Shown here: positions 37,575-59,287 of the stretch, in pieces
Layout of the letters: the number at the start of each line of letters is the position of its first letter
How positions within the stretch are numbered: the stretch's first letter is position 1
Assembly: GCA_016934745.1 (NCBI GenBank)
Contig: JAFGSF010000062.1
Coordinates: forward strand, 64,843 to 128,842
Direction of reading: 5' to 3'
Source of the DNA: Candidatus Aminicenantes bacterium
GTDB taxonomy: Bacteria > Acidobacteriota > Aminicenantia > UBA2199
Length of the DNA: 64,000 nt
Notes under the pieces: model-generated
Databases searched by the model: none
What the model was told of the DNA's origin: nothing
Seen by the model: only the letters and a program-made list of their open reading frames with translations
Made by a program: the position numbers and the translations under genes

Positions 37575-37602
37575 TTGACTTTTCTGTAATTATCTGTATA
37601 AT
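37575..37602 (+). promoter_or_regulatory. sigma70-type promoter TTGACT-16nt-TATAAT
   Basis: Followed by a ~25-nt leader with AAGGAG 7 nt before ATG 37634. Confidence 0.5.
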
Positions 37603-37633
37603 AAAAACCCTATAAAATTTAAGGAGTTCAAAC

Positions 37634-39205
37634 ATGAAAAGAACAGTTTTGCCTGTGGCCATGCTATTGATAATCTCTGTCATCACTGCGGGGATCGTCA
37701 TTGGCGCCTCATCCGAGGCAAAGGACCCGACAACTGCCATCACCCATAGCCCAAGCGAGCAATCAAAGGGCGTGTCCGGAGCTACAAACCCCCGAGTAAC
37801 GGCCGACCCGGTCGTTACGACGATACAGCTCACTCCGTTGAACCACACTGGAAACTGGCGCCATCCGGCTGTTGGCGAGGACTCCAGGGGAAACCGTCTG
37901 GTTATTTTCAGAGGCCCGGAAGGTAACAAATATTACTACGTTTATTGCACGAATGGCGGCACGTGGAGCGCCCCAAAATTAATCGCCGACGGCAACCAAC
38001 CGCTTCTCCACAACAGCCTCTATGCGAATATTAAGGTCGACAGTAGCGACCGCTTTCATTGCACCTGGGAAGATGCCGATGGAGCCGTTTACGCGTCGTT
38101 CCGCGACGATGTCTGGTCAACACCCACGCTGCAATATATGACCGGCGAATATGATTTGATCAGCAGTGCCCTCGACATTCGCAGCGACGATACCGTGCTC
38201 ACCGCTGACTGCGAGGTTAATGGTTTTAGCAAAGATATCTTCCTCCACAGCAAGGGCAAGAATGACACCGAATTCGGCGACCCTTTCAATATGACCAGGG
38301 ATGTCATTGAAGGTTCGACCCAACCCTGCATCGCCGTCGACTCTAAAGACAATACCTGGCTAGTGTGGAAGAGCGATCTCCTCATCCCTGACGTTGACGA
38401 AAATTTGGTCATTTACCTGGCCCAGTATGATGTGAACAACAATGATGTGGATGACTGGATGCTTCTTTCAACCAGCCCGGGCTGGTCATTTGTGCCCCAG
38501 GTTGCCGTCAACAGCGAAGATAAAGTAATGTCCGCATGGGCCTTCCCCACAGGCGGTGCCTATAGTTCCAGGCTCTTTGATCCAGCAACCAAAACGATGA
38601 GTCCTGAAATCGACCTTGGAATCAGCCTTTTAAGAGTGCCCTGGCACACTTTCTTTATCAGAATGGCGTCCCACGACAAGGATTTCTTTGTGACGGCCCT
38701 GACCGCCGCCAGGACCCTTCCCCTGATGAAATTCGATGAAACGACTTCCGAATGGAACCAGGTCGCTGAATGCGCCGATAGAGGCGTTGAGATGCATTCT
38801 TTGTTTTCGGGTTATGACAACATGCTTATCGCTTGGAATTCATTCGAGGAGCCCACAGGCGTCTTCCTTACCACGGTCAGCGTTCCGCCCTACAGCAAGA
38901 TCAGGATCAAATCAGTAAGCAACCTCGTGGTGGTAAAACAAACCGAACGCGGCTTCTTCACTGGTTACACACTGAATGCCTTGACTTGGGAAGCCAATCC
39001 AGAAAACGCAGAAAAAGAGATCACGGTCACTGCTCATCGCGTTTACCGCAAAGGGCGGACCGAGCCTTACTCAGAATGGGAACGCATCGCTGAGCTCGCA
39101 GCGGATGTCTTTAAATACGGTGACCGTAACATCCCCGCCAATAGCGACTACGTCTATGCCGTCACTTGCGTCGATGACGAAGGCAAAGAAAGCTCGATCA
39201 ATTAA
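37634..39205 (+). CDS. secreted BNR/sialidase-like beta-propeller protein with a C-terminal Fn3-like module (paralog of 51749..53494)
   Basis: 523 aa with a signal/anchor peptide and a Ser/Thr/Pro-rich linker. It has repeated G-x-W-S/T-x-P blade motifs (NGGTWSAP, DDVWSTP) and a C-terminal YRKG...SDYVYAVTCVDDEGKES. It shares PQVAVNSEDK versus RPVVAVNSIND with the paralog. Confidence 0.6.
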   Translation: MKRTVLPVAMLLIISVITAGIVIGASSEAKDPTTAITHSPSEQSKGVSGATNPRVTADPVVTTIQLTPLNHTGNWRHPAVGEDSRGNRLVIFRGPEGNKYYYVYCTNGGTWSAPKLIADGNQPLLHNSLYANIKVDSSDRFHCTWEDADGAVYASFRDDVWSTPTLQYMTGEYDLISSALDIRSDDTVLTADCEVNGFSKDIFLHSKGKNDTEFGDPFNMTRDVIEGSTQPCIAVDSKDNTWLVWKSDLLIPDVDENLVIYLAQYDVNNNDVDDWMLLSTSPGWSFVPQVAVNSEDKVMSAWAFPTGGAYSSRLFDPATKTMSPEIDLGISLLRVPWHTFFIRMASHDKDFFVTALTAARTLPLMKFDETTSEWNQVAECADRGVEMHSLFSGYDNMLIAWNSFEEPTGVFLTTVSVPPYSKIRIKSVSNLVVVKQTERGFFTGYTLNALTWEANPENAEKEITVTAHRVYRKGRTEPYSEWERIAELAADVFKYGDRNIPANSDYVYAVTCVDDEGKESSIN

Positions 39206-39359: not shown

Positions 39360-40418
39360 TTATTTGATCAGGAGATTGCTTTGTATATAGCTGGCAATCG
39401 CATGGGAGAAAATTTTGTTTCCCAACGGATTGGGGTGGGCGTTGGCGGCACTGATGCGAACATCTTGAATCTCATATGGCAAAAAAGCAGATAGTGGGTC
39501 AATCACGGCAAAAGCATATTGCCCTGCCAGTTTTTTTACAATCTTATGCAATTCGGAAAAAGGATATTGCTGCAGATTCTGCAATTCAGGGTAGATGGCA
39601 ATCAACACCGGGACCTTTGGTTGGGTGGCCCGGCGGATGTCGGCAAAGGCTGCATGCAGGCGGCTCCAATTTTCAGGTTCCTGGTAGGCATTAAGTAAAA
39701 ATCCATTGTAGCCCATTTTGAGAACTTTCTGTCCGTCTTTGGAATACCGGGGAGGTTTGGTATCTGCTTTGGTTTTTTTTAGATAGAAACGATTCTTTAG
39801 CAACAAATACAGTTTGGAACGGCCAAGGAACTTGTCAATAAACCCGATACCGGTGGTCAAAAACGAGTTGTAACCTCGATATGTGCTTAACACAGTCCTT
39901 TCGCGGCTCAGTATGCCAATATCATTCAGGGAGTAGCCAATCACGATCAAATCGGGCGAATAACCCAGGACTTTTTCGCGAATTATTTCGGCTTCCTGGG
40001 TAGTATTATAGCCCATGACACCAAAATTGATGACTTCGACACTGGCCTTGGATCGCCGCAGTTCCTTTTCCAATTGCTTGGGCCATGTATCCTGCAGATC
40101 CACTGCCATGCCAAACGTGCATGAATCGCCTACGGCAGCAATACGATAGGTGCTTGCTGGTTTAATGCGCGCATAGACTTCATCGCGGATGCCGTCTTTG
40201 TTGATTCTGTACCAGGTGTTATCTTCAAAAGAAGCGCTTCCGGGAATCAGCTCATAGCCCATTTTCCTATTGGCAGAGGGGCGGTGCGTTTTCAGGCTCA
40301 ACGGGATGATTTGCCCGGAAATTTTGCTTCCTAAAATTCTGATGCCGATCTCCAGCAAGCCCAAGGTAAAGACGGTCGTCAAAAAGATGACCAATAACCG
40401 CGACAAAATTTTTTTCAT
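39360..40418 (-). CDS. SGNH/GDSL hydrolase with an N-terminal membrane anchor
   Basis: The start is set at ATG 40418 (MKKILSRLLVIFLTTVFTLGLL...). Block I is AAVGDSCTFG, block III is GYSLNDIG and block V is like AANAHPNPLG. The track's 566-aa version is a GC-rich upstream shadow extension. Confidence 0.75.
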   Translation of the reverse strand: MKKILSRLLVIFLTTVFTLGLLEIGIRILGSKISGQIIPLSLKTHRPSANRKMGYELIPGSASFEDNTWYRINKDGIRDEVYARIKPASTYRIAAVGDSCTFGMAVDLQDTWPKQLEKELRRSKASVEVINFGVMGYNTTQEAEIIREKVLGYSPDLIVIGYSLNDIGILSRERTVLSTYRGYNSFLTTGIGFIDKFLGRSKLYLLLKNRFYLKKTKADTKPPRYSKDGQKVLKMGYNGFLLNAYQEPENWSRLHAAFADIRRATQPKVPVLIAIYPELQNLQQYPFSELHKIVKKLAGQYAFAVIDPLSAFLPYEIQDVRISAANAHPNPLGNKIFSHAIASYIQSNLLIK

Positions 40419-40543: not shown

Positions 40544-42535
40544 TCATGGCTGGGCCAGGGAATAGAGGACGGTCGAACCCATGCGCTTCAGCACAGGCAA
40601 AGCGGGTGCAATCTTGAAATAACGTTTTTCGTCTTCCCCCCAGAAAAGATAATCCACTCCCATGTTTTTCAGGTCGTTTTGAGTAGCCGGCAGTCCGGCA
40701 AGGGCACGGCGCAGAGCTTCGACCCGGCGCTGGTATAGGTCCGGAAGAACCTGGAATATCTGGCCATGCATCCGGTCGCCGACAACCATTTGTTTTCCCG
40801 AAAAAGCGGGTATGGCCGAAAGGTTCCAGGGCCTGGCCTCGGGGAAATTCTGAACTGTCCGGTTGGCGGGGACGTTCTTTCTGATCCAAGCCAACATCCG
40901 CATTTCCCCAAAGGAGACATAACTGGTGAAACGTCGGTTTTGGACATCGGACGAATTTCCGACATCCAGGGTAAGGGTCCATAGGCCGGGCAGGATGGTC
41001 AGCAAGGCCATGAAAAGTGCAAGCCTGCCGGCCCCCCGCGAGACCTCGGCGAGTCGACAAGTCAGGAGCGCCAGGACCAAGATGGCCACCAATCCGGCCT
41101 TGAGTGACACATCCGACTCGAAGTTATTGATGCGCACGGCCAGGATGAGGCCAAGGGAAACGGCCAGGAGCAGAGCATAGAAAGCCCTTCCCTGGAAACG
41201 CCCCGCCAGGAGCCCCAACGCTCCGCCCAATGTCAGCAGGCCGAAGTTCAAACCCAGCAGGATTAGGATTTCACCCGGCTTCATTGGTTTGAGCACGACG
41301 CCGCTGCCGCTGAATGAGATCATTTTCAGACCAACGGAAAGTCCTATGACAAAAATCGGCAAAACGAAATATTTCGCCAGGTTCTTCAGGAAATCCCGAA
41401 ACTTGAGCAGCCCACGAACGAGATTTGCCCCTTCCCGGACCGTTGCGTACAATCCCCAGGAAATGAGGAGAATCCCGCCGACGAAAAAACTGGCCGCCAG
41501 GCTTGATGCCAGGCAGACTGCTAACGCCCAGGGATGTTCATGTTTTTGAGACAGAACGTACAAAAACAACAACAAGAAGGTCAGACTGAGCAGATGCTGC
41601 GGAGTGAAGAGCAGCGATCTGAGCAACGTATCGATCTCAGGCAGTTGCCAGAACCAGCGGGTCAAGCCGTCAATGTTGATATTGCGGCCGATACGGAAAT
41701 AGACCGTCCATGAAAAACGCGCCCGTACCGCCCAGAGGTAGAAGCCCTCGAGGCTAGGAGCCAGGACCAGCAGTGCGGCAAAGTATGGCATCCACCTCCG
41801 TCGTCCGCAGATCTTCAATGCCATAAGGAACAAAAGGAGAATAAAAAGGAAATTGACGGAGAAGGAAAAAGCGAACATGGCTTTGGCCGTGGAACCGGCA
41901 AAAAACGCTACTAAGGCCGGTGTGGCATAAGGGAGCCAATAGTAATGCAGCGCCTCGCCCTGGAAATAGAGGTTTGCGGGGGGCAGGCCGGCCTGATTAA
42001 GTGATTCGACCACCGAGAAATGCTTGAGGTAATCCGAACTGAAATAAGCGCGATAAGCATAATTCCCATCGAGGGGAAGACCGATCCTTGAGAAAGGATA
42101 CCAGGCTAGGACCGTCACCAAAAGAAAGGCGATGGCAACCCAACGTTTATCCTTGCTAGCTGCCTTATTCCCGGGCGCTTTGCGGATGATGGAGAGTAGA
42201 AATCCGATCGTGAGCAGAACCACCAGGACCTGCGGCGCGGCGCGGCCCGCCAGGGCGCGGCAGACCAGCCAGGCAAAAGGAAACAAGCCAAGGCTGAGAA
42301 GGGAGCGGATCGTTAAGGATGTCACGGCCGAACCATTTTCCATGAAAGCGCCGCTCGCAACCTTCAGAATTCCATTGCTCAGAAACAATAAAAGGGTCAG
42401 GACCACAGCCGCCTTTTCTCCGGCAAAAAGAAAGTTGCCAAACAACAACAGGGAGTAGAAAAGGATGGCTGCAAATTTTTCAATCAGTCGACTGAACAGG
42501 GTCTTAATACTGTAAGTCAAGCCAATTTTTCCCAT
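40544..42535 (-). CDS. 663-aa polytopic membrane protein with a C-terminal periplasmic domain (GT-C-like glycosyltransferase/polymerase candidate)
   Basis: About 14 or more hydrophobic helices, a loop motif YFSSDYLKHF...PPANLYFQGEALHYYWLPY and a ~150-aa soluble C-terminus. It is markedly G+C-rich relative to its neighbours. The function is inferred from architecture and context only. Confidence 0.45.
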   Translation of the reverse strand: MGKIGLTYSIKTLFSRLIEKFAAILFYSLLLFGNFLFAGEKAAVVLTLLLFLSNGILKVASGAFMENGSAVTSLTIRSLLSLGLFPFAWLVCRALAGRAAPQVLVVLLTIGFLLSIIRKAPGNKAASKDKRWVAIAFLLVTVLAWYPFSRIGLPLDGNYAYRAYFSSDYLKHFSVVESLNQAGLPPANLYFQGEALHYYWLPYATPALVAFFAGSTAKAMFAFSFSVNFLFILLLFLMALKICGRRRWMPYFAALLVLAPSLEGFYLWAVRARFSWTVYFRIGRNINIDGLTRWFWQLPEIDTLLRSLLFTPQHLLSLTFLLLFLYVLSQKHEHPWALAVCLASSLAASFFVGGILLISWGLYATVREGANLVRGLLKFRDFLKNLAKYFVLPIFVIGLSVGLKMISFSGSGVVLKPMKPGEILILLGLNFGLLTLGGALGLLAGRFQGRAFYALLLAVSLGLILAVRINNFESDVSLKAGLVAILVLALLTCRLAEVSRGAGRLALFMALLTILPGLWTLTLDVGNSSDVQNRRFTSYVSFGEMRMLAWIRKNVPANRTVQNFPEARPWNLSAIPAFSGKQMVVGDRMHGQIFQVLPDLYQRRVEALRRALAGLPATQNDLKNMGVDYLFWGEDEKRYFKIAPALPVLKRMGSTVLYSLAQP

Positions 42536-42541
42536 TCAGGC

Positions 42542-42570
42542 ATTTTGAGGATAATTTTTCAAAATGTCAA
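42542..42570 (-). promoter_or_regulatory. sigma70-type promoter TTGACA-17nt-CAAAAT; the -10 ends 6 nt before ATG 42535 (leaderless layout)
   Basis: Read on the minus strand. Confidence 0.4.
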
Positions 42571-42714
42571 TCATTCGGCGCTGATTTCTTTGGAAGAAAC
42601 TGTTGGGGGTAAATTTCTGAAATGAGAATAGAAGATTTGTTCTGCCACTAAATATGTCCACCGCGTTTTTTGTTGAAACTAAGCTTGATGTTTCGAGATA
42701 GTGCCTGGTTGTGT

Positions 42715-42873
42715 TTAAAAAAGGGTGTAAATAAAAGGGGCAAACGGGCTGCCGGCCGAAAGAAAGATCAAAAGCCCAAGTAAAACCAGGATGACAATCA
42801 CCGGCACCAGCCAGAATTTTTTGTTATGCTTAATGAAATCCCAAAGTTCTTTCAGGACACCTATTTTAGCCAT
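42715..42873 (-). CDS. DUF5989 (SxtK-like) small membrane protein, 52 aa
   Basis: Not in the ORF track (too short). Own translation gives MAKIGVLKELWDFIKHNKKFWLVPVIVILVLLGLLIFLSAGSPFAPFIYTLF*. The APFIYTLF ending and its position after carbamoyltransferase and SxtJ match the known cassette. Confidence 0.8.
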   Translation of the reverse strand: MAKIGVLKELWDFIKHNKKFWLVPVIVILVLLGLLIFLSAGSPFAPFIYTLF

Positions 42874-42888: not shown

Positions 42889-43281
42889 TTAATATTGTTT
42901 TTCGTAACCTTGTGCGGTTTGCGGATCTTCAAAATAAGATAGAGCTGCCTTATCATAACGCACGGCCATAAATTCTTTGCCAAACAAACGCATGACTAGG
43001 GAGAGCGGGGTGAGCAGTAAGAAAAATACTGCAGCGGCAATGACCAGAAATATCATGTTGCCGACAAAACCGCTAACAAGCAATATTCCCTTATAAGCAG
43101 GAGCAAACAAGCGGGGCAGGATAGAAAAAAACAAGGCAACCACTGCAAAGGCAAAAAATATTTTTGTTTTCAACAAACCGTCAACGCCTTTGAAACCCCT
43201 CCAAAGGATCAGGGCTGAAAGAGCCGTCAGCAACAATAAAAACATGCGCATGTTTTTAGCGGAATAATTAGTTTTTTTCAT
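42889..43281 (-). CDS. SxtJ-family membrane protein
   Basis: 130 aa from ATG 43281 (TAATG overlap with the carbamoyltransferase stop), with 3-4 TM helices. The track's start at 43308 would overlap by 28 nt. Confidence 0.65.
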   Translation of the reverse strand: MKKTNYSAKNMRMFLLLLTALSALILWRGFKGVDGLLKTKIFFAFAVVALFFSILPRLFAPAYKGILLVSGFVGNMIFLVIAAAVFFLLLTPLSLVMRLFGKEFMAVRYDKAALSYFEDPQTAQGYEKQY

Positions 43282-45101
43282 TAATCCAGTTGAAACTCCT
43301 TTTTCCAATCCGAATCACCCTGAAGGATGTCCATCTGCTGCTTGTCAAGAAAATAATTTTCCAGCACGAGATAATCGATGTTGGTGCGCATAAAACAGCG
43401 GTAGGCATCTTCCGGAGAATTGATAATTGGTTCGCCGCGAACATTAAAGGATGTGTTGATAATTATCGGACAACCGGTAAGCTTATAGAACTCTTCTATA
43501 ACGGCGTAATAATAAGGGCTGACTTCGCGGTTAACGGTATGCAGGCGGGCAGAAAAATCGACATGGGTGATTGCCGGCACGCATGACCTTTTTATATATA
43601 ATTTATCTATGCCTTTTTTCTTTTTATCTTCGGCAGTAAACTGGCAGCGGTATTTTTCACGGATGTCATAAACCAACAGCATGTAGGGTGAAGGAACATC
43701 AAAATCAAAATACTCCCCGACCTGTTCCTCGAGCATGGAGGGAGCAAATGGCCGAAAAGACTCGCGGAATTTTATTTTAAGATTCATGAGTGATTGCATT
43801 TTGTCAGAGCGCGCGTCACCGATAATGCTGCGGCCGCCCAGGGCGCGGGGACCGAATTCCATGCGCCCCTGGAAAAAGCCGACAACCTTATGGCCATTGA
43901 TAAGTTCGGCAATTTTTTTTGGCGCTGCTGCGGGAGAAACTTCACTGTATTTTATATTTTGGCTGTCAAGAAACTTTTTAATATATTCGGGAGAATAATC
44001 GGGTCCCAAAAAGGAACCCCGTTGCGAGTCTTTCCCCGGCTGCACGTTGCGTTCCATTTTAAGCTTTTTATGCCAAACCGCCAGGGCCGCGCCCAAGGCT
44101 CCGCCCGCATCTCCGGCCGCGGGCTGGATCCATATATTCTTGAATGTCTGTTTTTTCAAAATTTTGCCGTTGGCCACGCAATTCAAAGCCACGCCACCGG
44201 CTAGGCACAGATTTTCGCTGGGTGCGATCTTTTTAGCAGTAGCAACTATTTTTTCCAGTATTTCTTCCAGCACGACCTGAATGGAAGCAGCCAGGTCCAT
44301 ATCTTCTTTGCGCAGCGGGGTTTCGGGAAGTCGGCGAGTGATGTTGAAAAGTTTTTCAAATCTGCGGCCGGTCATGGTCAAACCGGTATGATAGCTGAAA
44401 TATTTCAGGTTCAAACGAAACGAACCGTCTTCTTTGACATCCACCAGATTTTTTAAAATGATATCCCGATAAATTGGCTCGCCATAGGGAGCAAGGCCCA
44501 TCAGCTTGTATTCTCCCGAATTTACCTTGAAACCGGTAAAATAAGTAAAAGCCGAATAGAGCAGGCCGAGGGAATGGGGGAAGGATATTCTCTTTAACAT
44601 TTCAAAATCACTGCCTTTACCATAGGCAATGGTCAGGGTGTCCCACTCGCCAACGCCGTCAACGGTTATAACCGCGGCTTCAGTAAAGGGCGATGGATAA
44701 AAAGCCGAAGCGATATGGGACTCATGGTGAGTGATAAATAGTATCTCGGCCTTCGGGGTCGCGACTTTCTCCTTGATGATTTCCTTCATAAAGAGCTTTT
44801 CTTTGGCCCACACCGGCACAACTTTCAAAAAACTTCGGGTGCCGGCCGGAGCAAACTGCATAAAGGTTGACATCAAGCGGTCAAACTTGATAAACGGTTT
44901 TTCGTAAAAAACAACATAATCAATGTCAGCCCGGGAAATACCGGTATAATCAAGGGCGGCCTGCAAGGCTTTTTCCGGAAAACCGGCATCATGCTTTTTT
45001 CTGCTGAAACGTTCTTCTTGCGCCGCAAAAATAATTTCACCGTCTTTGAGCAAGCATACCGCGCTGTCATGATAAAATGCTGAAATACCAAGGATAATCA
45101 T
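43281..45101 (-). CDS. carbamoyltransferase (NodU/CmcH family)
   Basis: 606 aa with the N-terminus IILGISAFYHDSAVCLLKDGEIIFAAQEERFSRKKHD and a C-terminal YrdC/Kae1-like carbamoyl-transfer layout. Confidence 0.9.
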   Translation of the reverse strand: MIILGISAFYHDSAVCLLKDGEIIFAAQEERFSRKKHDAGFPEKALQAALDYTGISRADIDYVVFYEKPFIKFDRLMSTFMQFAPAGTRSFLKVVPVWAKEKLFMKEIIKEKVATPKAEILFITHHESHIASAFYPSPFTEAAVITVDGVGEWDTLTIAYGKGSDFEMLKRISFPHSLGLLYSAFTYFTGFKVNSGEYKLMGLAPYGEPIYRDIILKNLVDVKEDGSFRLNLKYFSYHTGLTMTGRRFEKLFNITRRLPETPLRKEDMDLAASIQVVLEEILEKIVATAKKIAPSENLCLAGGVALNCVANGKILKKQTFKNIWIQPAAGDAGGALGAALAVWHKKLKMERNVQPGKDSQRGSFLGPDYSPEYIKKFLDSQNIKYSEVSPAAAPKKIAELINGHKVVGFFQGRMEFGPRALGGRSIIGDARSDKMQSLMNLKIKFRESFRPFAPSMLEEQVGEYFDFDVPSPYMLLVYDIREKYRCQFTAEDKKKKGIDKLYIKRSCVPAITHVDFSARLHTVNREVSPYYYAVIEEFYKLTGCPIIINTSFNVRGEPIINSPEDAYRCFMRTNIDYLVLENYFLDKQQMDILQGDSDWKKEFQLD

Positions 45102-45108
45102 GCTTATT

Positions 45109-45140
45109 ATTATAGCAAAAATCGATCACAACGTCTATAC
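45109..45140 (-). promoter_or_regulatory. extended -10 promoter TGCTATAAT (weak -35 TAGACG); the -10 ends 7 nt before ATG 45101 (leaderless layout)
   Basis: Read on the minus strand. Confidence 0.45.
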
Positions 45141-45173
45141 GCCGCTAGTAGATTTCTGCTGTGTAACAGTTGA

Positions 45174-45202
45174 TTGACATTTTCATATACTTCCCCTAAA
45201 AT
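45174..45202 (+). promoter_or_regulatory. sigma70-type promoter TTGACA-17nt-TAAAAT with a ~128-nt leader
   Basis: Read directly from the sequence. It is divergent from the carbamoyltransferase promoter. Confidence 0.5.
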
Positions 45203-50554: not shown

Positions 50555-50600
50555 AACTTCAACCTCCATAATTTTATGAATATTTTCTTAAAGGGAGCTA

Positions 50601-51713: not shown

Positions 51714-51742
51714 TTGACAAACATCGTTAGGCCTTCTATAAT
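51714..51742 (+). promoter_or_regulatory. consensus sigma70 promoter TTGACA-17nt-TATAAT; the -10 ends 6 nt before ATG 51749 (leaderless layout)
   Basis: Perfect hexamers and spacing read directly from the sequence. Confidence 0.6.
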
Positions 51743-51748: not shown

Positions 51749-53494
51749 ATGCGTTGGCGAATCGCTCTCTTTTTGCTGTTTTCGGGATTTTTTTTTGCGC
51801 AGCTCGAATACGCGGATGCGGAAAACATTTCGAATTCTCCCTACCCGTCAGAAAATGTCAGCATCGCCATTAGTCCGTCCGGGGAAATTGGAGCAATCTG
51901 GGTAGAGAAGTTCTCGAGCGAAAATCAGCAAATCTATTACTCTATTCGGCAGAATGAGCAGTGGTCGTCCCCCCAGAGCATTCCTGGACAGTCGGGAAGG
52001 AACGCCAATCCCCGTATCGCCAAAGGAATCAATGGGGGATTCGTAGCGGTCTGGCATGATCAGTCATTCGAATGCATCCGTTTCTCACAATACCAGGGAT
52101 CCTGGTCGACTCCGCTTACCGTTTCCCAGGTTGGCGGCTACCAATTGAGCTGGCCTGCAATCACAACAACCACCAACGGCCGTATAGCAGTGGGCTGGAT
52201 GCGGGGAAACCCGACGAACCTGGATATATACGTGGCAACATTTCAAAACGGCTGGTCAGACCCGGTTAACGTCTCGAATACGCCTTTCAGTTCCAAATAT
52301 TGCGACTTGGCTTACGGCCCGAATGGCGAGATCTATGTCGTCTTCCAGGATAATCTATGGATAAATGAGACGGACTATTTTGCCACAAAGATGTGCCATG
52401 ACAGCGGCAACGGAAGATGGACCCAACCAGAAATAATTGACAACCTCGATGCTTGGACTTTTCGGCCAGTAGTAGCGGTCAATTCGATTAATGACATCCT
52501 CTCCTGTTTTTATTACATGCAGGGATCCAGCTACTGGGCTTCGTACCGTTTAAATGGCATTTGGCAAAATCCACAGATCATCAGTGATGTCGGTAACCAT
52601 CACGACCACGATTTTTATTTTTCCGATGTCTGCCCTTTCAATGACGATAGCTTCCTTTACATTTATCGCGACTGCGCCCTGAACATTTTTTACACAATTG
52701 TCCGGGAAGGAAATCAGGAAGGAGGGGTGGCCCTGACCAACAGTGCTCAGTGTTATTGTCCAAGTATTGATTACAATCCCACGGTGGGGGCCGCCGCGGC
52801 TTGGACCGATCGCTCCGGAAGCTGTGATGTGTTTGTCCAGTTTTTTGATCCCGAAACCGGGACCAGTGGAAGCGGGATACAGCCTCCAATCAGAGTGGTC
52901 GCCGATTACAAGAAAATCTTCCTGACGCCAGCCGAACTGAAAGTCGAACCGGTCGTCAATCGCAACCTTTTTTCCATCCAATATTTTTGGAAAATCAGCT
53001 GGGTTGCGGACAGCCGCTGGAGCGACTGGAATATCAACCTTGCCAAATATCGCATATATCGTAAATTGAAAGCATCCGCTGCGTGGGTGCTACAGGCTGA
53101 AATCGGGCCTACGGAACTGATTTATATCGACACGGACGGTGTTTCCAAGCAAGATCAATTCGATTACAAAGTACTGGGCGTGGACGATTTCGGAAATGAG
53201 TTCTATGCCTACAACCGAATCAGCTGGGCACTTAACCCGATCAATACTGACAGGGGAATCACTGTACAAGGATATAAATTGTACCGCAAATTAAGTGGAC
53301 AATCAGCAGAAAGTTACACACTTTGGAAAACAGTCGATGCCGCTACTCTGGCTTGGGAGGATCACTCAATTGAAATCCAGCAACTCCAGGTATACGACTA
53401 TGCATTAACTTCGGTAAGCGATACAGGCAAGGAGAGCGTTAAAGCGCAGGCACTAAAAATCAGCAGTTCAACTTATAAGGAAAAGAGACTTTAA
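51749..53494 (+). CDS. secreted BNR/sialidase-like beta-propeller protein with two C-terminal Fn3-like modules (paralog of 37634..39205)
   Basis: 581 aa with a signal peptide. Blade motifs include NEQWSSP, YQGSWSTP, QNGWSDP, NGRWTQP and NGIWQNP. The C-terminal modules end FDYKVLGVDDFGNE and YDYALTSVSDTGKES. Confidence 0.6.
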   Translation: MRWRIALFLLFSGFFFAQLEYADAENISNSPYPSENVSIAISPSGEIGAIWVEKFSSENQQIYYSIRQNEQWSSPQSIPGQSGRNANPRIAKGINGGFVAVWHDQSFECIRFSQYQGSWSTPLTVSQVGGYQLSWPAITTTTNGRIAVGWMRGNPTNLDIYVATFQNGWSDPVNVSNTPFSSKYCDLAYGPNGEIYVVFQDNLWINETDYFATKMCHDSGNGRWTQPEIIDNLDAWTFRPVVAVNSINDILSCFYYMQGSSYWASYRLNGIWQNPQIISDVGNHHDHDFYFSDVCPFNDDSFLYIYRDCALNIFYTIVREGNQEGGVALTNSAQCYCPSIDYNPTVGAAAAWTDRSGSCDVFVQFFDPETGTSGSGIQPPIRVVADYKKIFLTPAELKVEPVVNRNLFSIQYFWKISWVADSRWSDWNINLAKYRIYRKLKASAAWVLQAEIGPTELIYIDTDGVSKQDQFDYKVLGVDDFGNEFYAYNRISWALNPINTDRGITVQGYKLYRKLSGQSAESYTLWKTVDAATLAWEDHSIEIQQLQVYDYALTSVSDTGKESVKAQALKISSSTYKEKRL

Positions 53495-53591: not shown

Positions 53592-56045
53592 TTATTTTTT
53601 TTGCCAGAAAGCGTTGATATAAGCCAGGTAATCGGGCTCAATGCTGAACTTTCCGATCATGAAATTACTCTCACGCTGGCCCTGGAAGCTGAATTGAATG
53701 AATGTCAGTTCATCGACAACAATCGGCTTCACAATTCCGGATGCCATATCCGCAGCCGAAATATCAATTTCACCGCTCTCTTTTTTACTCACGCCTATGG
53801 AGCTCCACGTCAGCTTCAGATTCGCTGTCAGCGGCTGCGTGAAGACGATTTTTTGACCTTGTATGCGCAGCAGGTATTGGCCGGCAACTAGCGGAAAATC
53901 ATCGAGAACCATGTCCTGGATCGACTGCTCTTCATTTATAAAAAGCCGCTCGGTCTGGACGAAACGGTGCAGGATGGGGTCGATGCCGGAATGACTATAA
54001 AACTTTTGGCACCAGGATGGAATCTCTGCAGCTGAAAAGGGATCGGGAAGCGGGTCGTTCTGGGGCCGGTCGAATATAGCTTTTTCCGGCACGGACTCCA
54101 CAGCGGACATGAACTCTGGCACACAGACCAGAAAAGCTGGAAAATCGCCCGCAGCATAGACCATTTCCATTGAATAAATATAGTCATGGTGCAGGCGCTG
54201 GCGACGGACATGATCGAAAACGATTCTGTGGACTTGCCCGGCCCGCTCAAACAGGAATTTTTCTTTTTTGCCATTGACAGCAACGAACAACCACTTGCCG
54301 GCAGCTTTTGGCAGGATATAAAAATTGATCCGTGAGAGCGGGCGCGAGGAGTAGATTTTTTTTGTCCAGTTTTCTTTGGTGATTTTTCCGAAAAGCGGCG
54401 ATTTTTCGAAATTCTGCAACGGCAGGTAGCAGGTGTCGCTGGCAAGCTCGCTGGGCGGCAGGCTGAAAACAGGAAAGAAGTGCGGCAGGGGGTGGTCGAG
54501 ATTCAGTTCTTGCACCCAATAGGGCTTCTTGTACCAGTAAGTAATGTCATCGTCGAAAGATGAAAAGCGCGGCTTGTGGATGCGCTCGAAGGCCGTATAA
54601 TTGGCCAAATTGCGCTTTAGCGTTCTTTTAATTCTCGGATCGGCTGTCTCCTCGAGGATATAGCGAGTAAAAAGCCCGGTGCACAGAAATTGCATGGCGT
54701 CAGGGCCTTTAAACCAACTCCTCGGACCAGCGCTAAGATCGGAGTATCCCTTGTCCCCACTAAAGCCGGGAGTCATGTTTTCCCGGGCCAGGGAGAATTC
54801 AAAAGGGATATGGCGGAAGCGGTAATCGATTGCCTGGTCATAGGTAGAAGCGGTACTCAAAAGGTTGAAGCGGCGTATGTTCATCAGGGCGCCATTCACG
54901 GTATAGAGCCCCAGCAGGGCCCAGGCGGCAACTTGATAAAGAGGCCGCAACCGTCTGAATTTGTCCAGCAATTGCAGGGGATTGTAAAACAGACCGTTGG
55001 CAATGAGCAGGGCCGCGGCCGGCAGCAGGGGCAGCACCATGCGCTCTCCGAAATAAGCGGTATTGCCCAGGATGGCCACATAAACGATGATATAGGCGGC
55101 GATGAGTATGGAATGGCGCCGCCGGCTGAAAATGATAGTTAGCAGCCCGATCAACAGGAAGGCGCTGAGGATCGGCCCAAAACTCTCCAGGATCGTTTTG
55201 AAGAAAGCGGAGTAGGCCAGTTTTTTTTGGCCGTAAAAATGAAAACCGGTGTAATGGTAGGTAACAAAGCGATACGCTTCCGCGATATTCAGGAAAGGAT
55301 GGATGATCCAGTTGGGGGCGCCGCTAAAAAAACCCAGCGCCATGGCAGTCGGCGCCAGGAGCAGTGGTTTCCAAAGCGGCTGATGGTGGCGGTGGCACGT
55401 GATCAGGAATGTCGGCAACAGGAAAAAGAACTCTACCGCCGCATTGTACTTGGCTGCCACCGCCAGTCCGAAAAAAAGAGAAGAGAGAAACAGCCAGCGC
55501 CATTGCGCTTCGCGGTCGTGTTTCAGTACAAAATAAAGGCTGGCGCAGAGCAGCAGGGTTGTCAGGGTGTCGGGTTTGAAGATGTGGGCGTCGAAAACAA
55601 GGAACGAATTGACAGCCATCAGCAGTGCGGCGACCCAGGCCGCGGCCCGGCCGAAAAACTCGCGACCCATACGCCAGGTCAAGGCCACAAGAGCCGTTCC
55701 CGCCAAGGCCGTCACGATCCTTCCGGCTTTGAGGACGAAATCGTAGCCCAGGCCTGAGTAGACGAATTGCGAAGGAAAATTAGTGACACCGAAGAAGAGC
55801 AGTATTTTCTGGCAGACAAAGGCTAGCAGAAAGTTGAAGTAAAAGAAAAGCGGCGGATAACCAGGATAGCCTGGATAGCTGCCGTTAGAGAAAGGATTGT
55901 CATAGATGTGCAGAGTTATGTTCAGTAGCGCGGCTTCATCGGGGACCCCCAGGCGGTTCCATTGCTGCAGGCGCATGGCCAAAGCAAAAACCAGAAGCAG
56001 CATCAGGGCTAAAGCGCCAATCAATTTGCGTTTATCGGCGAGCAT
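53592..56045 (-). CDS. GT-C glycosyltransferase, family 39/ArnT/PMT_2-like, with a ~400-aa C-terminal periplasmic extension
   Basis: 817 aa. The first loop carries LGVPDEAALL (Asp-Glu motif), followed by YPGYPGYPPLFFYFNFLL and a polytopic N-half. Confidence 0.7.
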   Translation of the reverse strand: MLADKRKLIGALALMLLLVFALAMRLQQWNRLGVPDEAALLNITLHIYDNPFSNGSYPGYPGYPPLFFYFNFLLAFVCQKILLFFGVTNFPSQFVYSGLGYDFVLKAGRIVTALAGTALVALTWRMGREFFGRAAAWVAALLMAVNSFLVFDAHIFKPDTLTTLLLCASLYFVLKHDREAQWRWLFLSSLFFGLAVAAKYNAAVEFFFLLPTFLITCHRHHQPLWKPLLLAPTAMALGFFSGAPNWIIHPFLNIAEAYRFVTYHYTGFHFYGQKKLAYSAFFKTILESFGPILSAFLLIGLLTIIFSRRRHSILIAAYIIVYVAILGNTAYFGERMVLPLLPAAALLIANGLFYNPLQLLDKFRRLRPLYQVAAWALLGLYTVNGALMNIRRFNLLSTASTYDQAIDYRFRHIPFEFSLARENMTPGFSGDKGYSDLSAGPRSWFKGPDAMQFLCTGLFTRYILEETADPRIKRTLKRNLANYTAFERIHKPRFSSFDDDITYWYKKPYWVQELNLDHPLPHFFPVFSLPPSELASDTCYLPLQNFEKSPLFGKITKENWTKKIYSSRPLSRINFYILPKAAGKWLFVAVNGKKEKFLFERAGQVHRIVFDHVRRQRLHHDYIYSMEMVYAAGDFPAFLVCVPEFMSAVESVPEKAIFDRPQNDPLPDPFSAAEIPSWCQKFYSHSGIDPILHRFVQTERLFINEEQSIQDMVLDDFPLVAGQYLLRIQGQKIVFTQPLTANLKLTWSSIGVSKKESGEIDISAADMASGIVKPIVVDELTFIQFSFQGQRESNFMIGKFSIEPDYLAYINAFWQKK

Positions 56046-56212: not shown

Positions 56213-56218
56213 CAGCCG

Positions 56219-58336
56219 ATGGGACAACGTCTGGATAAATATCGCCTAGAAAGCGGTATAATTTTTTCCTATTTTCTCGTATCTTTGCTGATTCTCTATC
56301 CGCTTCTGACACGTTTATTCAGCCAGCTTCCCTTTGCATCCAATGGAGATATTCGCCTCTCTCTGGCAATCCTGTTTTCAAATCTGAAAAAAATCACCCA
56401 GGGTGATTTTCTGAATCTTTTCCAACTTCCCATCCTTTTCCCCTTGTCCCATACTTTAACTGCGGGAATCAATCTTTTCGGACAGACCTTGCTGGTCCTA
56501 CCGTTTTATCTTGTTCAGATCCGGAATGTATATATCATCTACAACCTATTGACCTTTATTTCATATATTGCAGCGGGATATTGTTCGTATCGATTTGTAC
56601 GCGAATGGGTTCCGGAACGCTGGATCGCCTGGGTCGCAGGAGCTTTATATATCCTCCTGCCCTTCCGAGTTCACAATATCCCGCACTTGAACCTGATGTT
56701 CAGTTTTCCCATTCCCCTCAGCCTTTTATTTTTTTCCCGATTTTTAAAAATGGGCAAGACAAAAGACCTGGTTTTCTTTTTTTTCTCGTTTCTTTCGCAA
56801 TTTCTGTTCGACCTTTCCTTAGGCATTTTCTTGGGAATTGCCCTGGGGATTTTTTTTCTGGTCCAGCAAGTTATATTCGGCCTCCTGCCCAGGAGGTCTT
56901 GGCTGCTCTTCATCATGGCTTCCGTTTTATTCGTCCTTTTCGTGACCCTGATCTTTTTCCCTTACTTAAATCAGAAAACCTCCTTTTCCATTGTCCCCGA
57001 AACAAAATCCATCTCCCCAGAAAATTTCAGAACCCCGCTGAGTTTTTACAGCAATTGGACCTACCTGCTCCTGTTCTTCAAGCGAATATTCTGGGATCAA
57101 TCCCCATTTTCGCCGGGAATCAGTATATTTGTTTTTTTCCTCCTCGCCTTTGTACCTTACTTTGAAAAGCGCCTGCAAAAAACCACTGCTCTGTTTTGCT
57201 CGTTTTTTCTAATTATCCCTGCCTTTGCCCTGCCCATCATCTACAATGGTTTGCCTTTGAACATACTGAATCGACTATGCGGTTGGGCACTCCTTTTATT
57301 TCTCTTGAGCCTTTCACTACTCCTTTTCCTGATCCGCAAAAAGATTCCCCGCTCGCTGCTTCTACTTACAATCACTTGGATCGTTTTGCAATTCTATTCC
57401 AGCCAGATCAGTTTGCCTTTTTTCAACCTGTTTCAAGGTCTGGCTCGTTTGTTCCCTTTTCTGCTCCGCACCCGAGGCATCCGCACGGAATATATCTTGC
57501 TGCTCCTCTTTTTTACAATTTCCGCCTTCGGATTTTCTTATTTTTATAGACGCTTCCAGAAAAATAAAATCATCCTGGGGCTGGTGCTTTTTTTGGTTTT
57601 CGCCGAACGCCTACGCTGGCCGGTATATCCGGAAAGGCTGAAAGATGATCTCCCGATCTTCCGGACGATCTATCAACAACTCGCACTCTACCCGGACCAT
57701 TTCGGCCTATTGGAATTCCCTTTTTTCCCGCAAAATTCCAACTATTATCCGCTATTTACCATCTACCACAACAAGCACACCTATCACGGACTCATCAATT
57801 ACTTGAGCGATTATTACGGATTGACTGGCAATCCCCTGCTCCAGGCCGAAAGCGAGTTTTTCGGCCTGAGCGATCCGCAGTTTATGCAGATGCTGAAGGC
57901 AAAGGGGATCCGCCTGATCATGCTCTGCAAAAGCAAGATACACTCGGAACAAAATGAAGATCAACGGACTTGGTTGGCACTGAAAAATCAGATCAAAAAA
58001 GGCGAAAGCAAAGGCTTATTCGAAAAAATTGAAAAAAACCGTCATGGGATCCTCCTGGTTCTGGCCGAACAAGAGCAAGGACCGCAAATTCGCTATTTCC
58101 TCCCCTATTTTGCCCTTAAGGACAAAAAAAACCTTGTGTGCACCATCGATGCCAATGAGGAAACGATTGCAGAATTTCGCTTCAATGAAAAACCGGTCAA
58201 AAAGCAGCGGCTGCAGCTGGGAAGCCGAAGCAGAATCGTGATCAATCTTCAGAAACTTCCCCTGGCCCTGCAATTCAATTATCTGGAAATACGCTCGGGC
58301 CCTTCTTTAAAATTACTGAAGGTAAGGATAGAGTAG
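56219..58336 (+). CDS. 705-aa polytopic membrane protein with a C-terminal soluble domain (GT-C/YfhO-like candidate)
   Basis: About 14 or more TM helices followed by a ~230-aa soluble domain. The architecture parallels the other three large membrane proteins in the island. I could not recognise a firm family motif. Confidence 0.4.
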   Translation: MGQRLDKYRLESGIIFSYFLVSLLILYPLLTRLFSQLPFASNGDIRLSLAILFSNLKKITQGDFLNLFQLPILFPLSHTLTAGINLFGQTLLVLPFYLVQIRNVYIIYNLLTFISYIAAGYCSYRFVREWVPERWIAWVAGALYILLPFRVHNIPHLNLMFSFPIPLSLLFFSRFLKMGKTKDLVFFFFSFLSQFLFDLSLGIFLGIALGIFFLVQQVIFGLLPRRSWLLFIMASVLFVLFVTLIFFPYLNQKTSFSIVPETKSISPENFRTPLSFYSNWTYLLLFFKRIFWDQSPFSPGISIFVFFLLAFVPYFEKRLQKTTALFCSFFLIIPAFALPIIYNGLPLNILNRLCGWALLLFLLSLSLLLFLIRKKIPRSLLLLTITWIVLQFYSSQISLPFFNLFQGLARLFPFLLRTRGIRTEYILLLLFFTISAFGFSYFYRRFQKNKIILGLVLFLVFAERLRWPVYPERLKDDLPIFRTIYQQLALYPDHFGLLEFPFFPQNSNYYPLFTIYHNKHTYHGLINYLSDYYGLTGNPLLQAESEFFGLSDPQFMQMLKAKGIRLIMLCKSKIHSEQNEDQRTWLALKNQIKKGESKGLFEKIEKNRHGILLVLAEQEQGPQIRYFLPYFALKDKKNLVCTIDANEETIAEFRFNEKPVKKQRLQLGSRSRIVINLQKLPLALQFNYLEIRSGPSLKLLKVRIE

Positions 58337-58357
58337 GAAATCAAGAAAAAATCATTT

Positions 58358-59287
58358 TCATTCGATATCGCGGATCCGGTCGATAAAAAAACGGGGGCGA
58401 TTTTTGATCTCTTCGAAGAAAATGATTAGATATTCGCCAATAATGGCGATCATAAAAAACATCAATCCAAATGAGATCAGGGTCAAAAGCGTCATGGTAC
58501 TCAGACCCACGACGATCCTGCCAGTGAACTTATTGTATAAAATCAGGATTCCGTAAAAAAACGAAAAAATCCAATACCCCAGGGCGATAAAAAAATTAAT
58601 GCGCAGGATGTGGGAAAAAGAAATGATACTCCTTATGCCCAGCAAAAATAGTTTTTTGAACGTGAAGGTCGTAACATCGCTCTCCCCGGGATTGAATGTG
58701 ATCTCCCGTGAGGCCATTCCAAGCCAGCGCACCAAGTTGCGGACCACGATTCCATTTTCCTGCATCAATAAAATGCGATCGCGCACAATCCGAGAAAAGA
58801 GAATGAAATCAGAGGAGCCTTTTTTCAGCTCCCTGATCCCCAACTTTCGCACAATGAAAAAAAAGAGGGCCGTCAGGGAACGTCTCAGCCAGTGATAGGG
58901 CTCCTGCTTTTTGACTGCATATACAACTTCTATGTTCTCTTTTTCAATGCAGCGGTACATTTCCGGGACCAGAGTAAATGGAGTCTGTCCGTCGGCATCG
59001 ATGATCACATAAAAATCAGCTTCCATCTCCTGCATGCCGGCAAATACAGCGCTATCCTTGCCGAAATTACGGACAAAGCGGATCAATTTCGCCGCGATCT
59101 TTTCCTCAGACAGTTTCTTTTCAAATACATTAAATGTATCGTCCCGCGAACCATCATCGATCAAGACCAGGACTACTTGAACCTCAGATGAAGGCAAGGC
59201 GGACTGAATACTACGCAAGCCGGCGATCAAGGTTTCTACCCGCCGACTTTCATTCAATGCGGGCACAAGGACGGCAAGTCGTTTCAT
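58358..59287 (-). CDS. GT2 polyprenyl-phosphate glycosyltransferase (GtrB/ArnC/DPM1-like)
   Basis: 309 aa with VLVPALNES..., IDDGSRDDT, a DxD (IIDADGQ) and two C-terminal TM helices, as in GtrB-type enzymes. Confidence 0.8.
   Translation of the reverse strand: MKRLAVLVPALNESRRVETLIAGLRSIQSALPSSEVQVVLVLIDDGSRDDTFNVFEKKLSEEKIAAKLIRFVRNFGKDSAVFAGMQEMEADFYVIIDADGQTPFTLVPEMYRCIEKENIEVVYAVKKQEPYHWLRRSLTALFFFIVRKLGIRELKKGSSDFILFSRIVRDRILLMQENGIVVRNLVRWLGMASREITFNPGESDVTTFTFKKLFLLGIRSIISFSHILRINFFIALGYWIFSFFYGILILYNKFTGRIVVGLSTMTLLTLISFGLMFFMIAIIGEYLIIFFEEIKNRPRFFIDRIRDIE

Follow-up and report, generated by a model that had tools for sequence, protein, structure and literature searches.

We analyzed a 64,000-nt stretch of DNA from Candidatus Aminicenantes bacterium (the window) and focused on the locus at positions 37575–59287, which encodes a family 2 glycosyltransferase (GT2), four large membrane proteins assigned to or predicted to belong to the GT-C glycosyltransferases, a carbamoyltransferase cassette, and other envelope-related proteins. 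In the original prediction, which was made from the sequence alone, 16 genes between 37.6 and 59.3 kb had been described as an envelope-modification set. The gene positions and the observation of such a set were reproduced, and most of the family assignments held; those of the short-chain dehydrogenase/reductase (SDR), the left-handed beta-helix (LbH) acyltransferase, the carbamoyltransferase, SxtJ, the SGNH hydrolase, and the esterase were confirmed by family searches. Fifteen genes lie inside the interval, the leftmost of which (sec523) begins at 37634, and the small outer membrane protein (OMP) gene counted among the 16 lies beyond its right edge, at 59491–60105. We consider the chances about even that this is a lineage-specific envelope-glycan modification locus built of recurring modules, in which periplasmic glycosylation is combined with separate carbamoyl and acetyl editing. 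Designations such as L001 and L005 refer to genomic loci of relatives.

Glycosyltransferases encoded by the locus

The gene at 58358–59287 on the minus strand encodes a GT2 of the GtrB/ArnC/DPM1 type. The predicted GtrB/ArnC-type enzyme with C-terminal transmembrane (TM) helices was borne out by similarity over the full length to GtrB and ArnC: GT2 matched Synechocystis GtrB (5EKP) with an E value of 5e-27 over residues 4–305, ArnC with 1e-18, and DPMS with 7e-10. It also matched Pfam Glycos_transf_2 and contains a DAD motif and hydrophobic C-terminal segments at residues 230–251 and 257–294 that correspond to a TM hairpin. By all sequence criteria applied, GT2 is predicted to be a polyprenyl-phosphate glycosyltransferase.

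Two of the four large membrane proteins, PMT2_542 (47082–48710, minus strand) and PMT2_817 (53592–56045, minus strand), had been regarded as PMT_2/ArnT-like GT-C enzymes with an Asp-Glu motif, in agreement with our results. They scored 35.5 and 63.3 bits, respectively, against Pfam PMT_2 (cut-off, 26.1), and the motifs WAMDEI (residues 44–49 of PMT2_542; D47-E48) and VPDEA (residues 34–38 of PMT2_817; D36-E37) are both located just past TM1. The TM domains of the two proteins are similar to each other (E ~1e-6). PMT2_817 has a C-terminal domain of about 390 aa without a Pfam match, and Pfam searches with the C-terminal domains of PMT2_542, PMT2_817, GTC705, and the secreted proteins sec523 and sec581 yielded nothing useful.

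The other two proteins, GTC663 (663 aa; 40544–42535, minus strand) and GTC705 (705 aa; 56219–58336, plus strand), showed no match in Pfam, in NCBIfam, or among PDB sequences, and the profile searches proposed earlier for the four membrane proteins thus placed PMT2_542 and PMT2_817 in a family and left GTC663 and GTC705 themselves without one. Homologues of the latter two were gathered and aligned (n = 149 for GTC663 and n = 53 for GTC705), and AlphaFold2 (AF2) models were obtained with pLDDT 91.9 and pTM 0.93 for GTC663 and pLDDT 82.3 and pTM 0.79 for GTC705. In Foldseek searches of the PDB, the top 14 matches of GTC663 were all GT-C proteins (STT3, DPY19, AglB, AftA, ArnT, PglB, and Pmt4), as were the top 13 of GTC705 (STT3, DPY19, and AglB); the leading matches of both models had a probability of 1.00 and E values of 3e-6 to 9e-3. 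Another fold, for example that of transporters, had been considered for these two proteins. Both were GT-C-like by AF2 and Foldseek, and transporters appeared among the matches with non-significant E values only. On the basis of these models, GTC663 and GTC705 are assigned to the GT-C fold and predicted to use polyprenyl-phosphate-sugar donors.

In the alignment of GTC663, residues R162, Y164, F165, and D168 were invariant, with D168 in a loop-helix after the helix at 130–149, and this stretch is a candidate catalytic loop. In GTC705, D44 in the first loop was nearly invariant. All four GT-C proteins have an acidic residue, of putative catalytic function, in one of the first extracytoplasmic loops. 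DUF2298 was weakly matched by 12 of 43 GTC663 relatives, and GTC663 is regarded as distantly DUF2298-like; no characterization of DUF2298, or of the DUF5989 family described below, was found in the literature searched. A Wzy- or WaaL-like identity of GTC663 was rejected, since the 43 relatives gave one marginal Wzy_C match and no such protein was found among the leading Foldseek matches.

The last ~100 residues of GTC705, a beta-sandwich resembling a carbohydrate-binding module (CBM), matched CBM6/35/36 and the carbohydrate-binding domain of BcsB in Foldseek. The GTC705-family profile retrieved 4968 proteins among 1.84 billion representatives, and ten distant relatives that were scanned carried PTPS_related, PMT_2, or DUF6044 membrane domains together with F5/8-type-C or ILEI C-terminal domains. 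The CBM-like tail and the lectin-type tails of the relatives suggest a glycan as the type of acceptor. With this locus, the GT-C enzymes gain two orphan branches, a 663-aa DUF2298-like family and a 705-aa family with a lectin-type tail.

The carbamoyl cassette

CarbT (43281–45101, minus strand) is an O-carbamoyltransferase of the NodU/TobZ/NovN/GdmN type (Carbam_trans_N, 329 bits; Carbam_trans_C, 227 bits). It is homologous over its full length to NovN (E 7e-82), GdmN, and TobZ in the PDB, and it is a cytoplasmic protein with no TM segment. The ATG of the next gene (42889–43281, minus strand), at 43281, overlaps the CarbT stop codon by 1 nt; this gene encodes an SxtJ-like small membrane protein of 130 aa, which aligned with annotated SxtJ-family proteins of Planctomyces and Planktothrix. 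A further 15 nt on follows an open reading frame (ORF) at 42715–42873 (minus strand) for a single-pass microprotein of 52 aa, which matched DUF5989 (PF19451) with 80.6 bits and turned out to be the SxtK-like partner that had been proposed. CarbT is translationally coupled to the two small membrane proteins. The gene at the SxtL position of the cassette (39360–40418, minus strand) encodes an SGNH/GDSL protein of 352 aa with an N-terminal membrane anchor (Lipase_GDSL_2, E 2e-16). For this ORF, a 566-aa extension from a TTG codon was rejected; it overlaps GTC663 and its N-terminus resembles an out-of-frame translation, and the start was set at 40418.

In saxitoxin clusters, the gene order is sxtI-sxtJ-sxtK-sxtL, with sxtL encoding a GDSL lipase, and SxtJ and SxtK were given as hypothetical proteins or proteins of unknown function in the 2009 papers on these clusters (PMC2679770, PMC2684587). 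The cassette of the window has the same four-gene composition, and its relatives have the same order, the kinship of the window SGNH protein with SxtL being itself putative. Unlike the saxitoxin clusters, the window and most metagenome loci lack a toxin pathway, the context is that of envelope glycans, and GTC663 is inserted between DUF5989 and SGNH in the window, whereas SGNH directly follows DUF5989 in L009, L010, L012, and L020. CarbT homologues with 54% identity were found in equivalent cassettes of Planctomyces and Sinorhizobium pSymB; the Planctomyces cassette is located in an exosortase/EpsI exopolysaccharide locus with a sugar O-acetyltransferase gene next to it. The window SGNH protein is homologous to the Planktothrix SGNH protein encoded after SxtJ-DUF5989 (phmmer E 3e-19) and to the products of SGNH genes that lie about 4 kb away from the cassette in Ensifer.

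A scan of metagenomes for the C-terminus of DUF5989 yielded at least 600 stretches, of which 550 were confirmed among the matches listed, and 80 loci were kept. The gene for SxtJ was directly upstream of that for DUF5989 in 58 of the 66 evaluable loci, 35 of 43 had CarbT adjacent, and 8 of 17 had an SGNH gene within 2.5 kb. Relatives of the four GT-C proteins or GT2 of the window were found in none of the 80 loci. These contexts and those in relatives thus indicate that the cassette is an autonomous, widespread module, and the at least 600 pattern matches show that SxtI/J/K(/L) cassettes are abundant in environmental bacteria. Only in Aminicenantes and Acidobacteriota is the cassette linked to GT-C genes. 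On plasmid p1 of Planktothrix agardhii (L090, 5277–7116), the genes for SxtJ, DUF5989, and SGNH are contiguous without a carbamoyltransferase gene and lie beside a sterol-desaturase-family gene; therefore, these three genes can travel without CarbT.

Conservation and modularity in relatives

In 80 genome loci chosen around relatives of GTC663, the six-frame ORFs were searched with the window proteins. The right boundary of the locus was constant in four genomes (the window, L085, L086, and L172). It consists of the gene for a small outer membrane beta-barrel protein (59491–60105, plus strand; OMP_b-brl_2, E 5e-15), followed by those for a nitroreductase, a metallo-beta-lactamase-family protein (MBL), pyrG, and kdsB, and the content to its left varies. 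In L085, L086, and L172, the synteny downstream of the boundary comprises nitroreductase, MBL, pyrG, kdsB, bactofilin, parBA, gidB, glnA, and dnaA. A contig with an identical kdsB runs beyond the window into bactofilin-parB-parA-gidB-glnA, with dnaA next in relatives. The locus thus occupies a conserved, origin-proximal position in Aminicenantes genomes, and its content is variable.

L085 contains genes for PMT2_542, a sec523-like protein, the adaptor-barrel protein, the esterase, sec581, GTC705, and GT2, and other genes replace PMT2_817. In L086, genes for an NTP-transferase, two SDRs, a GT2, and a methyltransferase are inserted before GTC705, and a sulfatase-family membrane protein gene follows it. 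In L001, a close relative whose GTC663 is 93% identical to that of the window, the whole set is rearranged, with two GT2-GTC705 pairs and three 817-type gene fragments. Relatives swap in dTDP-sugar genes, a methyltransferase gene, and the sulfatase-family gene, and such variation fits a surface structure under diversifying selection. The 817-type PMT_2 fragments of L001 (18060–19235, 19239–20144, and 5785–6411) lie beside an intact paralogue and show gene decay and rearrangement in the locus. The sulfatase-family protein, of about 685 aa and with an LtaS/EptA-like architecture, is encoded next to the boundary OMP gene in L086 (12271–14328) and L001 (304–2358) and has no counterpart in the window; its presence at the same site is a hint that envelope-modification cassettes are housed there.

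The gene for GT2 adjoins that for GTC705 or sits one gene away in four genomes (the window, L001, where this occurs twice, L085, and L086), and GT2 is tightly linked to the 705-aa family only. In L005, L009, L010, L012, and L020, all from Aminicenantes, CarbT-SxtJ-DUF5989-SGNH form a contiguous operon beside GTC663, with the genes for sec523, the adaptor-barrel protein, and the esterase near. Other Aminicenantes have kept GTC663 and the esterase and lack CarbT. The esterase, Est264 (50723–51517, minus strand), is an alpha/beta esterase of the polyhydroxybutyrate-depolymerase/CE1-like type (NF050058, E 4e-14; weak Esterase and Abhydrolase_2 matches in Pfam) and a probable lipoprotein (MIPAC), and a homologue was found near GTC663 in 12 Aminicenantes loci. 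The gene for sec523 accompanies the carbamoyl cassette and GTC663 in L005, L009, L012, L017, and L020; it adjoins GTC663 in L017 and is two genes apart from it in the window and L005. In both the window and L086, the sec581 gene and an 817-type PMT_2 gene converge. In L048, from a distant member of Acidobacteriota, a GTC663 relative lies within 4 kb of CarbT-DUF5989. The window LbH protein (45337–46080, plus strand) is a hexapeptide O-acetyltransferase of the WcaF-like type (Hexapep, E 1e-15; WcaF family, E 3e-19) whose gene is transcribed divergently from the carbamoyl cassette; among the Vicinamibacteria loci for which coordinates were read, close LbH homologues (~200 bits) were encoded within about 6–8 kb of distant GTC663 relatives.

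Despite rearrangement, co-localization was observed in the window, L001/L016, L005, L009, L010, L012, L020, L085, and L086, and no cluster was found around the distant homologues in L003 (30% identity to GTC663) and L084 (37% identity to GTC705). As the families re-associate across rearranged relatives, the set is co-localized; the question of whether its genes are clustered or scattered in relatives was thereby answered in favor of clustering. The locus is modular, its pairings being GT2–GTC705, sec581–PMT2_817, and carbamoyl cassette–GTC663.

Such a pattern could also arise without functional unity, if an origin-proximal hot spot collected unrelated envelope genes and the coherence were a by-product of recombination. 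The locus comprises at least eight transcription units of alternating orientation, which is in line with this idea, as is the difference in content among the window, L001, L085, and L086, with pseudogene fragments in L001. The GC content is likewise mosaic, ranging from 0.41 to 0.58 per gene between flanks of 0.40–0.43; it is high in the genes for LbH (0.58), SDR (0.56), GTC663 (0.54), and sec523 and PMT2_817 (0.52 each) and low in those for SxtJ and DUF5989 (0.41 each) and PMT2_542 (0.43). The sharp shifts between adjacent genes suggest piecemeal acquisition from higher-GC relatives. However, at least nine Aminicenantes loci, and in part the distant L048, show the same families brought together again in differing orders, and every product is related to the envelope or to glycans. 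A mobile genomic island was rejected, because neither a tRNA gene nor a sizeable flanking repeat was detected and no integrase or transposase family was found among the scanned ORFs. We therefore regard a chance assembly of unrelated genes as improbable.

The modularity also bears on the single pathway that had been proposed for the locus, in which a carbamoylated or acylated sugar would be loaded on the lipid in an Arn-like manner, four GT-C enzymes would transfer it to different acceptors, and periplasmic esterases would remove the protecting group. All enzyme classes needed for this are encoded within one 22-kb stretch, with CarbT and LbH being cytoplasmic and SGNH and the esterase extracytoplasmic. 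The resemblance to the Arn system extends to an ArnC-like GT2 and PMT_2 proteins of ArnT-like size. However, GT2 is linked to the GTC705 family only; the flanks of L009, L010, L012, and L020, which contain GTC663 and the cassette, have no GT2 homologue; and the carbamoyltransferase belongs to an autonomous SxtI/J/K(/L) cassette, near which none of the 80 metagenome loci had GT2 or GT-C relatives. The two membrane proteins coupled to CarbT are left unexplained by this scheme. A formyltransferase, an aminotransferase, a deformylase, and an EamA-type flippase (ArnA, ArnB, ArnD, and ArnE/F) were not found in family scans of the locus, and the group handled by the window would be carbamoyl, from a separate cassette, in contrast to the formyl group of Arn. 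In the Arn pathway, deformylation by ArnD is located on the cytoplasmic side, ahead of flipping, which conflicts with the removal of the acyl group after flipping assumed in the scheme. These results leave the single protected-donor pathway unsupported, and we assign it a low probability.

A proposed modular model of envelope-glycan modification

The more general part of the earlier interpretation, that GT2 makes a polyprenyl-phosphate sugar used by GT-C enzymes outside the inner membrane, is consistent with the results on homology and fold. In the modular model, the SDR (46084–47052, minus strand; 322 aa), an extended sugar epimerase/dehydratase/reductase (Epimerase, E 3e-38) whose top NCBIfam match was HpnA-like with 190 bits, under the family cut-off, would tailor a nucleotide sugar. 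GT2 would load the tailored sugar onto polyprenyl phosphate at the cytoplasmic face, and the lipid-linked sugar would be moved across by a flippase; neither GtrA nor ArnEF is present in the locus. At the periplasmic face, the GT-C enzymes would transfer sugars to pre-existing envelope glycans, such as lipopolysaccharide or another surface polymer. In the manner of GtrB and GtrC, GT2 would pair with GTC705, whose CBM-like tail would bind the acceptor glycan. CarbT-SxtJ-DUF5989-SGNH, LbH, and the esterase would form a separate editing layer that attaches carbamoyl and acetyl groups to this glycan and takes them off.

The pairing of GT2 with GTC705 is similar to that in Gtr systems (GtrA/GtrB/GtrC), in which a GtrB-type GT2 with a TM hairpin stands beside a variable GT-C partner, and the pair recurs in relatives. 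In contrast to Gtr, GTC705 represents a PTPS_related/PMT_2-like branch with a CBM-like tail, and the pair in the window is not phage-borne and is set among three further GT-C genes. GtrA is also missing: no locus ORF matched its family, and the intergenic gaps are too short for an additional gene.

Several results weigh against the modular model. PMT2_542 and PMT2_817 showed no sequence similarity to any solved GT-C protein in a PDB search, and the Foldseek TM-scores of GTC663 and GTC705 were 0.24–0.51; being moderate, these scores therefore indicate a shared fold and not a close relationship to GT-C enzymes. The SxtJ-like protein scored 22 bits against PF19588, under the cut-off of 24.4. GTC663 and the cassette occur without a GT2 homologue within 10 kb in L009, L010, L012, and L020. 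With the cassette standing apart from GT-C and GT2 relatives in the metagenome loci and the modules being separable, a single coupled pathway is therefore not demonstrated. In this model, the sugar, the acceptor, and the flippase are putative, and the host is uncultured.

Secreted proteins and possible protein O-glycosylation

The locus encodes two secreted proteins, sec523 (523 aa; 37634–39205, plus strand) and sec581 (581 aa; 51749–53494, plus strand), which had been taken as paralogues; this relationship was supported by phmmer (E 1.6e-14). The signal peptide of sec523 precedes a linker rich in Ser and Thr (13 of 40 residues); next come a body with repeats and a single ~95-aa domain at the C-terminus. 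In sec581, there are five W[STQ]xP repeats about 50 aa apart and two copies of the ~95-aa domain. Neither protein matched an NCBIfam or Pfam family, and a profile of their relatives gave marginal BNR_4, Kelch, and FG-GAP hints only in searches of PDB and Pfam. Together with weak BNR_4 and lectin-propeller matches, these hints are consistent with a propeller/Fn3 fold, which is putative.

These proteins raise the question of whether the GT-C enzymes are Pgf- or PMT-like and modify Ser/Thr residues of sec523, sec581, and perhaps other envelope proteins. The Ser/Thr-rich linker of sec523 would offer a substrate, and a GT-C gene accompanies each of the two paralogues, the 817-type PMT_2 gene in the case of sec581 and GTC663 in that of sec523. 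The Pgf operon of Streptococcus mutans (PgfS, PgfE, PgfM1, and PgfM2) also joins genes for a GT-A enzyme, an epimerase, two GT-C proteins, and substrate adhesins (PMC12041528). The window resembles it in its GT-A lipid-sugar synthase, SDR, several GT-C proteins, and co-encoded secreted proteins, and PgfS was the top NCBIfam match of GT2. However, the score of this match, 131 bits, is far under the equivalog cut-off of 500; the host is a diderm; and YfhO, the family of the Pgf GT-C proteins, was matched by none of the four GT-C proteins at the thresholds used, nor were MIR- or TMEM260-type features seen. In addition, the carbohydrate-binding-type tails of GTC705 and its distant relatives suggest that the acceptors are glycans, a pronounced Ser/Thr-rich region is lacking in sec581, and sec523 and sec581 could equally bind or process the glycan. 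Protein O-glycosylation is therefore an unlikely explanation, though somewhat less so than the chance assembly and the protected-donor pathway considered above. Taken together, the locus would work like Gtr, Arn, or Pgf, yet it differs from each in its defining genes, having no GtrA (Gtr), no ArnA, ArnB, ArnD, ArnE, or ArnF (Arn), and no YfhO-family GT-C protein together with a low PgfS score (Pgf).

Absence of export genes and possible periplasmic polymerization

Classical polysaccharide export genes had been reported as missing from the locus, and this was upheld in the window: no Wzx, Wzy, Wzz, Wza/Wzc, capsule ABC transporter, initiating phosphoglycosyltransferase, or processive synthase was found among the 45 ORFs scanned with Pfam, which did not include about nine smaller ORFs (120–336 aa) at 1–22 kb. 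The sole ABC system among the scanned ORFs was a FecCD-type importer accompanied by a TonB-dependent receptor. A complete Wzx/Wzy or ABC capsule locus adjacent to the envelope genes, which would have pointed to an ordinary O-antigen locus, was not found, and a hidden export locus elsewhere in the window was rejected, as the scanned ORFs at 1–37 kb encode housekeeping and uptake functions.

The adaptor-barrel protein (574 aa; 48845–50569, minus strand) combines a periplasmic adaptor of the RND/HlyD type, a K/E-rich linker, and a putative small outer membrane beta-barrel. The adaptor half of this previously proposed fusion was confirmed (TIGR01730, 80 bits), and the barrel half, of about 190 aa, was weakly supported by an OMP_b-brl match (E 0.006), a C-terminal Phe (the protein ends in AVKF), and PF13505 in many of the homologues. 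The few named proteins among 75 homologues were from metagenome-assembled genomes of Aminicenantes/Acidobacteria and from one member of Chrysiogenales. Some homologues were 920–1000 aa long with a doubled adaptor part. No pump gene is adjacent to the adaptor-barrel gene, which is frequently paired with a sec523-like gene.

Four GT-C proteins with one GT2 and no export genes among the scanned ORFs could also build a polymer in the periplasm. In such a scheme, modeled on mycobacterial arabinan and mannan, linkage-specific GT-C enzymes would polymerize one polyprenyl-phosphate monosaccharide outside the inner membrane, making a Wzx/Wzy or ABC route unnecessary, and the adaptor-barrel protein and the OMP would connect the product to the outer membrane. 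The occurrence of several GT-C genes in one locus has a precedent in mycobacterial embCAB. The Emb/Aft/Mpt enzymes, with donors made by Ppm1 or with decaprenylphosphoryl arabinose (DPA), are likewise several GT-C proteins that use polyprenyl-phosphate monosaccharides outside the membrane, and some have CBM tails, to which the CBM-like C-terminal domain of GTC705 is comparable, as in Emb and AftD. AftA had the highest target-normalized TM-score of the listed GTC663 matches (0.51), a measure that does not tell GT-C families apart. The conservation of the periplasm-spanning adaptor-barrel protein in the cluster also fits periplasmic polymerization. However, no primer or initiating enzyme was found, a barrel of ~190 aa is too small for a polysaccharide channel, and the modules separate in relatives. 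The window further differs from the mycobacterial systems in its lineage, its GT-C branches, and its diderm envelope. Polymerization in the periplasm accordingly receives little credence from us.

Under the favored modular model, an uncultured phylum may diversify its surface through lipid-linked monosaccharide donors, with classical export genes absent from the locus. The combination of an SxtIJKL-type cassette, two orphan GT-C branches, and an adaptor-barrel fusion is not known to have been described before.

A possible carbamoyl relay

The microprotein DUF5989 has a K-rich N-terminus and ends in APFIYTLF, which fits the pattern FXYXXF. The C-terminus APFIYT[LI]F was invariant in all 11 sequences that were reached without using the motif, which came from Aminicenantes, other Acidobacteriota, Planctomycetota, Alphaproteobacteria, and Cyanobacteria. 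Overall, FIYT[LI]F stood at the very C-terminus in 12 of 12 homologues from five phyla. FXYXXF is the acyl-shuttle motif of DltX and PatA, whose Tyr conveys the acyl group to DltD or PatB, the respective SGNH partner (PMC12148441). DUF5989 is like DltX in its size and in its N-in/C-out topology, predicted from the K-rich N-terminus. In the SGNH protein, Ser89 of the GDS motif, Gly123, Asn155-Asp156, and His318 were invariant, as were Glu13 and Arg17 in the membrane anchor.

These features raise the tentative possibility, to which we give well under an even chance, that the cassette is a Dlt/Pat-like carbamoyl relay and represents a third class of trans-envelope acyl relay, without MBOAT or AT3. 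CarbT would activate carbamoyl as an adenylate in the cytoplasm, and the group would pass through SxtJ to the invariant Tyr of the C-terminal FIYTLF of DUF5989 on the outer face. Ser89 of SGNH would then hand it to the periplasmic glycan made or decorated by the neighboring GT-C enzymes. The likeness to the Dlt and PatA/PatB relays, in which MBOAT and SGNH proteins work together, consists of a single-pass FXYXXF microprotein of about 50 aa (FIYTLF, compared with FIYANF in NgPatA), a membrane-anchored SGNH partner with a putative transferase role, and a cytoplasmic adenylate-forming donor enzyme encoded upstream. In contrast to these relays, the group would be carbamoyl, and no connection of an acyl shuttle with carbamoyl was found in the literature searched.

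Other observations weigh against a relay. No match to MBOAT or AT3 (Acyl_transf_3) was found in the locus with Pfam, and SxtJ is small, with 3–4 TM segments and no invariant His in the alignment. The DltX family was not matched when DUF5989 was searched against Pfam to an E value of 10, and the link to DltX is therefore at the level of the motif only. Within the DxxH block of the SGNH protein, conservation does not extend to the Asp. In saxitoxin clusters, moreover, a small molecule serves as the substrate, and the annotation of SxtL is that of a decarbamoylase. If the relay were true, it would give a mechanistic role to SxtJ, SxtK, and SxtL of these clusters, and the FIYT[LI]F motif offers a concrete hypothesis for the delivery of carbamoyl to extracytoplasmic polymers.

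Surroundings and minor features of the locus

In the Pfam scan, the left side of the locus comprised the TonB-dependent receptor/FecCD importer genes, alr, a set of genes for an extracytoplasmic function (ECF) sigma factor and anti-sigma factor, and housekeeping genes; the right side comprised the genes for OMP, nitroreductase, MBL, pyrG, and kdsB. The set at 28593–31564 on the minus strand, about 6 kb to the left of the locus and beside alr, encodes the ECF sigma factor, a zf-HC2 anti-sigma factor, a LiaF-like membrane protein, and a DUF4097 'toastrack' protein, and is likely an envelope-stress module. Two ORFs, at 10802–12340 (plus strand, 512 aa) and 19875–21275 (minus strand, 466 aa), had no Pfam family at E ≤ 1e-5. 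An ORF at 45110–45445 on the minus strand was rejected as a gene; it is probably spurious because it overlaps the start of the LbH gene, and a relative has only a promoter gap there.

Strong sigma-70-like promoters were found at 51714–51742 (plus strand), 45137–45109 (minus strand), and 42570–42542 (minus strand), upstream of the genes for sec581, CarbT, and GTC663, respectively. The sec581 promoter is a perfect sigma-70 consensus (12/12) and ends 7 nt upstream of the ATG, and at the three promoters the −10 hexamer ends 6–7 nt from the start codon, which suggests that these transcripts are leaderless or nearly so. A 35-nt inverted repeat (42539–42573 and 45171–45205; 74% complementary) flanks the CarbT-SxtJ-DUF5989 triad, and each of its arms falls on a promoter-like site that faces outward, toward GTC663 in one case and LbH in the other. 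This repeat could reflect shared regulation, the edges of an inserted cassette, or chance.

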